Below, piece by piece: positions 22,689 to 32,000 of a DNA stretch of 32,000 bases. The position numbers were made by a program, and so were the translations under genes. The notes under the pieces were generated by a model that was not told the origin of the DNA, did no database searches, and saw only the letters and a program-made list of their open reading frames with translations. Every line of letters begins with the position of its first letter. Within the stretch, counting starts at the first letter, position 1. The stretch is taken from assembly GCA_030668875.1 (NCBI GenBank), contig DAOVER010000022.1, positions 24,305 to 56,304 on the forward strand, written 5' to 3'. The stretch comes from Candidatus Heimdallarchaeota archaeon (lineage in GTDB: Archaea > Asgardarchaeota > Heimdallarchaeia > Heimdallarchaeales > Heimdallarchaeaceae).

Positions 22689-24533
22689 TTGGCAATCCAA
22701 ACTACCGCTCTAGAAACAGGGGAATTCTTTGACCCCATTATGGTCAAATATAATAAGAAAAATCACATCAGATGGATTCTTAGCCATGTTTTTGCTTATA
22801 AAAAACTTCTTGCCTTATTTATGTTATTTGCAACTATATCAATTGCAATTAATACAATAAATCCAATAATCACAGGACGATACTTAATTGATGCAATTTA
22901 TGAAAAGAATTGGGAAGGTGTAAAAAATTACGCGGTAATAATTCTAGGATTAACAGTTTTGAGGGGATTTGTTGATTTTGGAGCCAGTGTTGTAATTGAA
23001 GTCACATCTCAAAAATTGGAGAGAGATATTAGAGACGAATATTATGCATCGATGTTATCTAAGAGCATGACTTTCCATGATGAAGTGAAGGCTGGTGATG
23101 TGATGGCACGAGCTACATTTGATACAAGAATGGTTAATTATTTAGTAAATCCTTGTATACATCTTCTGTTTGCAGCGTTTGTAGGAGTAGCATTTGCAAT
23201 GGGTGGAATGTTGTTTATTGACCCTCTTTGGAATGGTATACCCATCTTGTGGTTACTACCTTTGACAATTTCCGTTCCAATCTTCTTCTTAGCTCGAAGA
23301 TATTTCAAATCTATAGGTCCTATTTCTATGGAGATCCAGAGATCCTACTCTGGTTTGTCCTCATATCTCCAAGAAAAATTACTAGGTATTAGCGTAGTAA
23401 AGATATTTGCAAGAAACCAACATGAAAGGATTGAGTTTAGAGACAAGAATGACACTTTATCTGATCAGATAATTAAAAGAGGTCAGTTAAGATCCAAATT
23501 CTATCCCGTTCTGTTAGTTGGTATTAGTGTGGGGATGGCTGTCGTTTATGGTGTGATTTTGATTCAAGTTGGAATCTTTGACATAGGCAGATTGTACTCC
23601 TATGTAATGCTAATGGGAAATCTTTTCTTCCCTATTTGGGTTCTCTCTTGGAGTCTTGTTCTCACACAAATGGGTTTAGCTGGTGCTAAAAGAATTACTG
23701 AAATCCTCACTAAACAGACAATAATCCCCAGACCAGAAAATCCGATTATTATTGAAAAAGCTAAAGGTGGTATTGAATTTAGAAATGTATCTTTTTCTTA
23801 TGATGGAAAAACAAAAGTAGTTAATGAAGTTACATTTAAGATCCCTCCAGGAAGTCGAACGGCCATAGTTGGGCCCGCGGGTTGTGGAAAGACAACTATG
23901 ATGAAATTACTTACGCGATTATATGATGTCGAATCTGGATCTATCCTTTTAGATAATCAAGATGTTCGGAATCTGTCGTTTGACACAATCAGGAACAATG
24001 TTGGAGTGATTGAACAGGATGTCATACTCTTCTCAGGGACAGTTAAGCAAAATATAGCTTATGGTAAACCTGATTCGACAGAAGAGGACATAATTCAAGC
24101 TGCGAAATTAGCGCAAGCTCATGAATTTATTGAAGTTTTTGATAAGAAATATGAAACTGTAGTAGGAGAAAGAGGAATGACTCTCTCTGGTGGTCAAAAA
24201 CAGCGTTTAGCTATAGCCAGAATGATACTCTCTGATCCTCAAATTCTAGTTTTTGATGACGCTACTTCAAGTGTTGATAGTGAAACAGAAGATCTTATTC
24301 AAAAGGCGATTAACCAAGTTCTTCAAAACAGAACTAGTTTCATAATTACTCATCGTTTGAGTACAATACGTATTTCTGATTTAATAATTGTTATGAAACA
24401 AGGAAAGATAGTTGCAATGGGTAAACACGATGAACTCTTAAAAACATCAGTAGATTATTGGCGTGTTTTTGCTAGATTCTCAGAAATACGTGACAAATTC
24501 ATTAAACCAGATGAGGATAGGAGGATTGATTAA
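22689..24533 (+). CDS. Type IV ABC exporter half-transporter, degenerate-site subunit
   Basis: TMD plus NBD with GPAGCGKT, LSGGQ and Walker B ILVFDD (catalytic Glu replaced by Asp). The probable start is TTG 22689, 4 nt after GAGGTGA, rather than the track start 22563. Confidence 0.92.
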   Translation: MAIQTTALETGEFFDPIMVKYNKKNHIRWILSHVFAYKKLLALFMLFATISIAINTINPIITGRYLIDAIYEKNWEGVKNYAVIILGLTVLRGFVDFGASVVIEVTSQKLERDIRDEYYASMLSKSMTFHDEVKAGDVMARATFDTRMVNYLVNPCIHLLFAAFVGVAFAMGGMLFIDPLWNGIPILWLLPLTISVPIFFLARRYFKSIGPISMEIQRSYSGLSSYLQEKLLGISVVKIFARNQHERIEFRDKNDTLSDQIIKRGQLRSKFYPVLLVGISVGMAVVYGVILIQVGIFDIGRLYSYVMLMGNLFFPIWVLSWSLVLTQMGLAGAKRITEILTKQTIIPRPENPIIIEKAKGGIEFRNVSFSYDGKTKVVNEVTFKIPPGSRTAIVGPAGCGKTTMMKLLTRLYDVESGSILLDNQDVRNLSFDTIRNNVGVIEQDVILFSGTVKQNIAYGKPDSTEEDIIQAAKLAQAHEFIEVFDKKYETVVGERGMTLSGGQKQRLAIARMILSDPQILVFDDATSSVDSETEDLIQKAINQVLQNRTSFIITHRLSTIRISDLIIVMKQGKIVAMGKHDELLKTSVDYWRVFARFSEIRDKFIKPDEDRRID

Positions 24534-31342: not shown

Positions 31343-31705
31343 TTATCTTGCAAGTCTACCTTCTGTATAAGCTCGACCATATGCCATATATGCATCTACG
31401 TAACCATATCCCATCTTTTGATCAAATGAGCTTCTTGAACTAGCATATTGTAAGATATCTATTACTTTTTGTAGAGACGGATCAGTTGACGAACCAATAC
31501 CCACATGATATCATGTTATTATTAGTACAATTATTGCTGCTAAATAAGGAGTACTCATACTAGTTCCTTCATTGTATTTCCAAGTTCCTCTATAACAACT
31601 CTGAGAAGAATCATAATAGGCATCTGCTAGTGCAGGTACCCCATTTCCCGGTTCTAACCAATTTATTATGTGATTTCCTGTCGTAGAAGAATTATACCAC
31701 GTACG
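31343..31705 (-). pseudogene. Remnant of a subtilisin-like S8 serine protease (C-terminal third), not in the ORF track
   Basis: Manual translation: TWYNSSTTGNHIINWLEPGNGVPALADAYY...NEGTSMSTPYLAAIIVLIIT*YHVGIG...KMGYGYVDAYMAYGRAYTEGRLAR*. GTSMSTP (31547-31567) is the catalytic-Ser motif and GYGYVDA the terminal motif. There is an internal TGA at 31511-31513 and an upstream in-frame TAA at 31706-31708. Confidence 0.85.
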
Positions 31706-32000
31706 TTATGAAACTTGGTTAAACCTGCCAGAGGCGGTCTAACCGTCGTTTAAGTGGGTCCCCTCACGTGCGTTGAGGGGAAGAATCATGAGGATCATGA
31801 TTGGGGAAGGAATGAAGGGAGTGCGCATTTACTCCGACAACATTCCTGCCATTGCGCTTCGTGCTGTATGGTTCAAGCTTTATTAACTGAGGGACAAGTA
31901 TTCAAACACTTGCGAACCATAAATATGGCGAGTTTTCGCCAAGCACTACCCATATATCAGCACTTTCCTATATAAACTCGTAGAAAAATGGAAGAAAATT
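31706..32000. mobile_element. Probable end of an inserted element (family unresolved), continuing beyond the window
   Basis: It begins where the protease frame is cut, GC rises (62/120 at 31741-31860), it is non-coding and hairpin-rich, and an ATG GAA GAA AAT opens on + at 31988. Confidence 0.5.
31717..31963. ncRNA. Candidate structured RNA of about 250 nt
   Basis: Stems read directly: GGTTA..ACC.GCC/GGC.GGT.TAACC (31717-31744), CCCCTCA/TGAGGGG (31760-31780), AATCATGA/TCATGATT (31784-31802), AGGAATG/CATTCCT enclosing GGAGT/ACTCC (31808-31847), and GTGCTG/CAGCAC (31861-31963) enclosing TATGGTTC/GAACCATA and TGGCGA/TCGCCA. Confidence 0.55.

Follow-up and report, generated by a model that had tools for sequence, protein, structure and literature searches.

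Insertion sequences of the IS607 family are mobilized by recombinases that act on double-stranded DNA, with recombination crossing over in a short matching core, and in one of their members, ISXfa1, the transposon-adjacent motif (TAM) is GGG as opposed to CGG on the right-end (RE) side. The TnpBs of IS607 elements are considered to be the source of eukaryotic Fanzors, and domesticated TnpB transcription factors are also known; in IStrons, IS607 or IS605 genes are joined to an intron. Gene-less carriers of TnpB guide RNAs have been described for IS605 elements in bacteria, and according to Meers et al. (PMC10055086), the ORF-less IS605 derivatives termed PATEs “often encode omega RNAs”, which work in trans with TnpB. 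In the reRNAs of ISDra2 and ISXfa1, a pseudoknot has been reported in which a hairpin loop pairs with the bases flanking the guide (Yoon et al.). The principle of a gene-less TnpB guide carrier is already known, and Heimdallarchaeota, of the Asgard archaea, are a little-studied host: a literature search found no paper naming TnpB together with Heimdallarchaeota and none on gene-less TnpB-guide elements in Asgard archaea.

At the end of a Heimdallarchaeota contig, comparative analysis establishes the identity of a mobile element, its ends, its mode of insertion, and a conserved RNA fold with a pseudoknot. The segment is probably the right-end three quarters of a non-autonomous, ORF-less IS607 derivative that keeps its parent’s ends, the tnpB promoter, the first few tnpB codons, and a guide-RNA core. 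The window, that is, the whole 32,000-nt stretch analyzed (positions 24305–56304 of contig C99 in genome G000), stops at the contig end with its last base. Alignment of copies shows that its final 302 nt (31699–32000, minus strand) are the RE part of a ~402-nt element of subfamily A. The left-end ~100 nt are absent from the window copy and sit on contig C37, where positions 1–222 are the left-end part of a subfamily-A element and overlap the last 125 nt of the window with one mismatch. An initial annotation of this DNA, made from the sequence alone, had placed the start of a hairpin-dense mobile element at 31706; the alignment moves it to 31699, and the other side runs off the contig at the end of the window. 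Its remarks on composition and structure hold: GC is 110 of 240 over 31741–31980, compared with 33.4% in the remainder of the window and 33.8% genome-wide, and 31699–31949 folds at −87 kcal/mol on the minus strand (z = −6.2) and −84 kcal/mol on the plus strand (z = −3.4), with none of 200 shuffles as good on either strand. The ORF thought to open at ATG 31988 fared less well; in full copies it reads as a 16-codon plus-strand frame (MEENWRGINHHHLNMQ*) whose start (31988–32000) lies inside the element and marks no gene. No ORF above 16–40 codons occurs in the 402-nt copies and, having no TnpA gene, they are non-autonomous.

Sequence from 31699 onward has 40 matches in the genome, many of them at contig ends. 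The ORF-less repeat amounts to ~18 copies, most of which break contigs, and these fall into two subfamilies: subfamily A, of 402 nt and ~13 copies by end counting, with a complete internal example at C95:100820–100419, and subfamily B, of 398 nt and ~5 copies by the same count (on C29 and C83, for example), which is 80% identical to A. A search for other copies and a definition of the ends, both suggested in the initial annotation, have thus dispensed with the case of a single-copy feature. Within the genus, 20 of 23 genomes contain the DNA repeat, and none of the 16 genomes searched from other genera of the order does.

Several variants of the repeat were also encountered. On C91, a copy truncated at 305 nt (L002:1500–2989; G000:C91:28224–29713) has lost its left end, and an element-internal ATG (MEENW) continues in frame into a fused, solute-binding-protein-like ORF of 399 aa that has a membrane anchor at its C-terminus. 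This ORF was entertained as a transposase and rejected, being a solute-binding-protein gene fused to the truncated copy; the alignment with its paralogue on C58 begins exactly at the fusion point. An 83-nt mini-element (L017, G000:C88:71839–71921) has nothing but the two ends, which meet at the arms of the subterminal inverted repeat (..CTTGCAAGAAGC/CTTCTGGCAAG..). A ~790-nt derivative on C15 (L016, G000:C15:30700–31483) keeps tnpA and both ends and has lost tnpB entirely, which is the converse of the deletion seen in the small elements. Finally, a third type of small element (L035, L039, and G000:C13:24313) combines the same promoter and the same ~95-nt right end with an unrelated internal RNA domain, suggesting that the small elements are modular, with a promoter, a variable domain, and a conserved right end.

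Eight further places in the genome share just the first ~86 nt with the window repeat, and three of them (C48, C87, and C37) extend into elements of ~2.75 kb. These first 86 nt are 98.8% identical to the RE of the intact C48 element, where they lie directly after the tnpB stop and therefore represent the right end of the transposon; at their opposite end, the small elements show homology to the left end (LE) of C48 and C15. The ~2.75-kb elements encode, on the strand equivalent to the window’s minus strand, an IS607 serine recombinase (TnpA) and a TnpB-like protein. Two intact IS607 tnpA genes were found in the genome, on C48 and C15, and their products match the NCBIfam IS607 transposase model NF033518 at 163–174 bits (cut-off 110), together with PF00239 and PF00376. 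The C48 protein, of 196 aa with Resolvase and MerR domains, scores 164 bits, and the 219-aa frame on C15 scores 174 bits.

The TnpB-like protein is 638 aa long, its C-terminus matches the Cas12f1-like TNB zinc-ribbon domain (PF07282), and its matches to TnpB and Cas12f in NCBIfam and among PDB sequences are weak. All 48 of its 48 relatives in reference genomes belong to Candidatus Heimdallarchaeota MAGs, at 59–90% identity. In this lineage (L012:1145–3058 and 36 relatives, L057–L103; 36 copies read), the RuvC-III motif NTHxNAAxNI has an invariant His where TnpB and Cas12 proteins have the third RuvC Asp, so that cleavage by this TnpB is not assured; D436 and E535 are retained in the lineage. 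The first zinc pair of the lineage reads HYGC.

The window copy interrupts a gene for an S8 peptidase. Its 3′ part (31343–31698, minus strand), encoding the C-terminal part of the protein, is the truncated gene that had been noticed beside the segment; orthologue comparison puts the cut at 31698/31699, and the N-terminal part lies at C37:223–1028. No S8 paralogue was found in the genome, so the empty site was read from orthologues. In two genomes of the genus, the uninterrupted gene (94% and 90% identical) reads TGGTTTTC-ACCGT-GGTATAAAT, giving an empty site of TTTTC-ACCGT-GGTAT, and a contig from a related strain in the RNA-library run X19, which is true RNA, passes straight from window position 31701 into the C37 flank. 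The X19 contigs cover this uninterrupted gene, not the element; two other RNA-labelled public runs considered as expression data, X17 and X18, cover the element only and were set aside as probably DNA. The interrupted gene is decaying after the insertion, having acquired an in-frame TGA (31511–31513, minus strand) where the two orthologues and one public run’s contig have GGA.

At the occupied site, TTTTC-ACCGT/TAGCAAC...CATAACGTACGT/GGTAT, the RE tip of the window copy is GTaCGT/. Comparison of this site with the empty ones shows that there is no target duplication at the window copy and that the target is ACCGT, with CGT common to the target and the RE tip (31699–31701, minus strand; supported by the empty sites of two orthologues and one run contig). 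A crossover inside the shared CGT leaves the junction ambiguous by 3 nt. Among 14 full-length elements of other genomes, RE tips of GCGT pair with LE junctions of ACCGT and tips of GTGT with junctions of ACTGT in 12 cases, a covariation that a crossover within a matching YG(T) core, as described for IS607, would produce. The AC before the core is target-derived, yet it is found at nearly all insertions; by analogy with ISXfa1, AC-YGT is the likely TAM of this TnpB, and TG-YGT at the RE would then shield occupied sites. Across copies, insertions occur in both orientations relative to host reading frames, about 7 versus 5. The element also has an imperfect subterminal inverted repeat of 20 nt, 75% complementary, whose RE arm (31711–31730) is possibly a TnpA site.

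The small elements carry a promoter of their own. In window orientation, their positions 250–289 match C48 between tnpA and tnpB, and the matching stretch includes TTTATATA, which on the tnpB strand shortly precedes the tnpB start. The window has it as the octamer TATATAAA at 31969–31976, correctly located in the initial annotation and read there as a possible outward-facing promoter of the minus strand. It is indeed an archaeal TATA box on that strand, but it points into the structured RNA rather than outward. The box is conserved in 22 diverged small elements, with occasional single-base variants, and is inherited from the tnpA–tnpB intergenic promoter. From the distance to the box, a transcript start is predicted near 31949.

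An alignment of 19 copies from 10 genomes, 69–97% identical and covering ~251 nt from ~20 nt downstream of the TATA box to the RE tip, supports a 12-helix structure for a ~250-nt RNA that ends exactly at the transposon end. Within this alignment, 96.4% of cells are paired, compared with ~40% when partners are slid, and 28 cells are changed on both sides versus 9.9 in shuffles, none of 500 shuffles being as high; covariation of the kind called for in the initial annotation is thus present, and compensatory changes are clear in the RE helix as well as in three helices belonging to the 5′ domain. G-U cells number 69 and A-C cells 17, favouring the tnpB-sense strand, although the structure was derived on that strand and the comparison is biased accordingly. 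Read from the right end on the minus strand, the fold begins with two nested helices at 31711–31751, AAAC/GUUU (31711–14 with 31748–51) and GGUUAGA/UUUAACC (31717–23 with 31738–44), backed by compensatory changes (UA to CG and AU to GC) and overlapping the RE arm of the subterminal inverted repeat. Next come the covariation-backed hairpin CCCCUCA/UGAGGGG (31760–31780), a hairpin AUCAUGA-NNN-UCAUGAU (31785–31801) that the alignment places in small elements and not in full-length ones, and a predicted helix AGGAAUG/CAUUCCU around the hairpin GGAGU/ACUCC (31808–31847). The 5′ domain (31861–31949) has a closing helix GUGCU/AGCAC around three helices.

The 43 full-length elements have no conserved fold within the tnpB coding part, and just their last ~95 nt fold consistently, so the 5′ domain of the small elements is their own; this ~150-nt domain is without a conserved counterpart in the autonomous elements. 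A nearly invariant unpaired stretch of the domain, GUCCCUCAG (31888–31899, minus strand; RNA positions 51–62 of 251), could give an alternative conformation by pairing with UGAGGGG, one arm of the pseudoknot hairpin, and a G-to-A change in one subfamily-B copy fits this pairing better than it fits the hairpin.

An alignment of 55 elements (12 small, 43 full-length) over their last 115 nt revealed the pseudoknot, in which the loop CGCACG of the CCCCUCA/UGAGGGG hairpin (5′ arm, 31767–31773, minus strand) pairs with the last six bases before the transposon tip, CGUGCG. In the window copy, this 3′ arm (31700–31705, minus strand), which adjoins the flank, reads CGUACG, a single G-to-A mismatch with the consensus. 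Compensatory changes occur in four of the seven pseudoknot pairs across the 55 elements, and the RE structure as a whole has 8 pairs changed on both sides versus 2.1 in shuffles (0 of 500 reaching that number). RNAalifold also proposed a long-range helix between GCGC at RNA positions 93–96 and the 3′ terminus. This helix is in competition with the pseudoknot and lacks compensatory changes, and the pseudoknot is therefore regarded as the real partner. Such a pseudoknot is a hallmark of the TnpB omega/reRNA. The scaffold lies on the tnpB strand, and in full-length elements the 86–95 nt shared by the two kinds of element extend from behind the tnpB stop to the right boundary. By analogy with TnpB reRNAs, the ~20 nt of flank beyond that boundary (31679–31698, minus strand; GGUAUAAUUCUUCUACGACA) would serve as the guide through read-through.

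Taken together, these features suggest how the element could work. From its parent it has kept both of the ends needed by TnpA, the promoter of tnpB along with the first few codons of that gene, and a non-coding right end that contains the omega/reRNA core. TnpA from the intact elements on C48 and C15 would then move it as double-stranded DNA, by a YG(T)-core crossover, into AC-YGT sites. Transcription from the minus-strand promoter (31976–31969) would yield an RNA of ~250 nt that continues past the right end at 31699, the flank beyond it serving as the guide, and the 638-aa, His-type TnpB of the autonomous elements would bind this RNA in trans. Again by analogy, TnpB would recognize the empty site by ACCGT, the likely TAM, and then by the guide match, with homologous repair restoring the copy.

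Other explanations of the segment were weighed against this one, beginning with the family proposed in the initial annotation, which saw an element end, a structured RNA, and an ORF in series on the plus strand and took them for an IS110-type element with a bridge RNA or an IscB element with an omega RNA. No such layout is present, since the RNA lies, like its promoter, on the minus strand and the reading frame from 31988 is 16 codons long; the ORFs that follow full copies on the plus strand, examined as transposase candidates, are unrelated host genes. An IS607 serine recombinase and a TnpB-like protein are the partners found, and the IS110 DEDD transposase (PF01548) was not found in the 92%-complete genome, whereas six control genomes were positive. 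Neither a DEDD/IS110 gene nor an IscB-like ORF adjoins any copy (the control for a genome-wide PF14239 search did not respond), and no support was found for a likeness of 31907–31950 to the ends of IS110-family elements. Nor did Rfam 15 supply a family, with no match in the whole window at gathering thresholds, HEARO included, and, at E values up to 10 for the region and six full elements, chance matches alone (PrrB/RsmZ at 14 bits and two snoRNA models). With nothing in its favour except the general layout of a structured non-coding end, this assignment has next to no probability. What does survive of the early proposal is its core, a mobile element with a guide-RNA-type non-coding part in an Asgard host, given the many copies, the covarying fold, and the confinement of the TnpB relatives to Heimdallarchaeota MAGs. 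A self-splicing, IStron-type intron of group I or II that leaves host mRNAs would agree with the size of ~400 nt, the dense fold, and the insertions in coding genes, and has a precedent in the combination of transposon genes and intron in IStrons. It is nevertheless very improbable: full copies match neither Intron_gpI nor any other Rfam intron on either strand, insertion in both orientations speaks against it, the S8 gene has, besides its interruption, acquired a stop codon, and the element ends are without intron-type consensus. A strict MITE was likewise considered, and its features were not found, there being neither terminal inverted repeats at the tips nor a target-site duplication.

The segment could also be an inert remnant, that is, a deletion derivative mobilized by TnpA whose hairpins are leftovers of the parent’s omega RNA or DNA sites for TnpA, with no functional RNA. 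The RNA-labelled runs covering the element are probably DNA, the pseudoknot of the window copy carries a mismatch, and the 83-nt mini-element of two ends alone indicates that the internal part is dispensable for mobility. On the other hand, compensatory changes in helices limited to the small elements, and a promoter conserved between copies that are 69–97% identical, point to selection on RNA; IS607 recombinases, moreover, act on double-stranded DNA, and no DNA-level role is known for a loop-to-terminus pseudoknot. An inert remnant is thus unlikely. Less probable still is that the RNA works in regulation, the His-type TnpB being a non-cutting DNA binder like the TnpB-derived TldR and the guides of the small elements repressing or marking their flanks. 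The His in place of the third RuvC Asp in every copy read, the promoter in each small element, and the existence of domesticated TnpB transcription factors would fit such a role, but this TnpB sits in intact multicopy transposons beside TnpA, the guides are whatever happens to flank each insertion, and D436 and E535 are retained. The evidence is best accommodated by a mobile IS607 derivative carrying a TnpB guide-RNA scaffold. It is more speculative, and fairly unlikely, that the small elements are promoter-equipped guide-RNA genes, each with its own ~150-nt covarying 5′ domain, that serve the Heimdallarchaeota-restricted, invariant-His TnpB lineage as a distinct RNA-guided system.

This identification accounts for a repeat by which the Heimdallarchaeota assembly is fragmented and genes are disrupted. 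For an archaeal IS607/TnpB system, it also supplies the precise ends, together with a target motif (ACYGT) and an RNA fold backed by covariation. If TnpB acts otherwise than by ordinary double-strand cleavage, or if the 5′ domain lets gene-less elements capture or regulate TnpB, a distinct RNA-guided system would result, and, if real, it would sit in the archaeal lineage closest to eukaryotes. Given that IS607 TnpBs are regarded as the source of Fanzors, an abundant, oversized, His-type TnpB with putative trans-acting guides in Asgard archaea is a reasonable subject for biochemistry.

Compared with described systems, the element shares with the IS110 bridge RNA and the IscB omega RNA (HEARO) a structured non-coding RNA at a transposon end, theirs specifying DNA targets; it differs from both in that their defining proteins are absent and its RNA lies downstream of the parent’s tnpB position, not upstream of a recombinase. 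Like strict MITEs, it is short, ORF-less, abundant, and assembly-breaking, but it has a 20-nt, 75%-complementary subterminal inverted repeat only, instead of terminal inverted repeats at the tips and a target-site duplication. It shares several traits with IS607 elements that have TnpB and reRNA, such as ISXfa1 and IS607 of Helicobacter pylori: in its autonomous relatives, tnpB follows a gene for a MerR-HTH serine recombinase; insertion leaves no target duplication, and recombination uses a short core found in both the element junction and the target; and the scaffold is at the right end, where a hairpin loop forms a pseudoknot with the bases next to the guide. As in ISXfa1, the LE-flank motif differs from the RE tip, AC-YGT versus TG-YGT here and GGG versus CGG there. 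Unlike these elements, the window copy is without genes and its host is archaeal, ACYGT takes the place of GG(G) as target, the partner TnpB is 638 aa long with His for the third RuvC Asp, and the RNA has an extra 5′ domain of ~150 nt. With PATEs (Meers et al., PMC10055086), the element has in common that it is gene-less and multicopy, that its ends are those of autonomous elements, and that its guide-RNA scaffold needs a TnpB made elsewhere. PATEs, however, move as single strands by means of a Y1 HUH transposase that recognizes subterminal hairpins, whereas the present element belongs to the serine-recombinase (IS607) lineage and has its own archaeal promoter. A gene-less IS607 derivative with a promoter and a TnpB guide-RNA scaffold is, in short, the IS607 counterpart of the IS605 PATEs.
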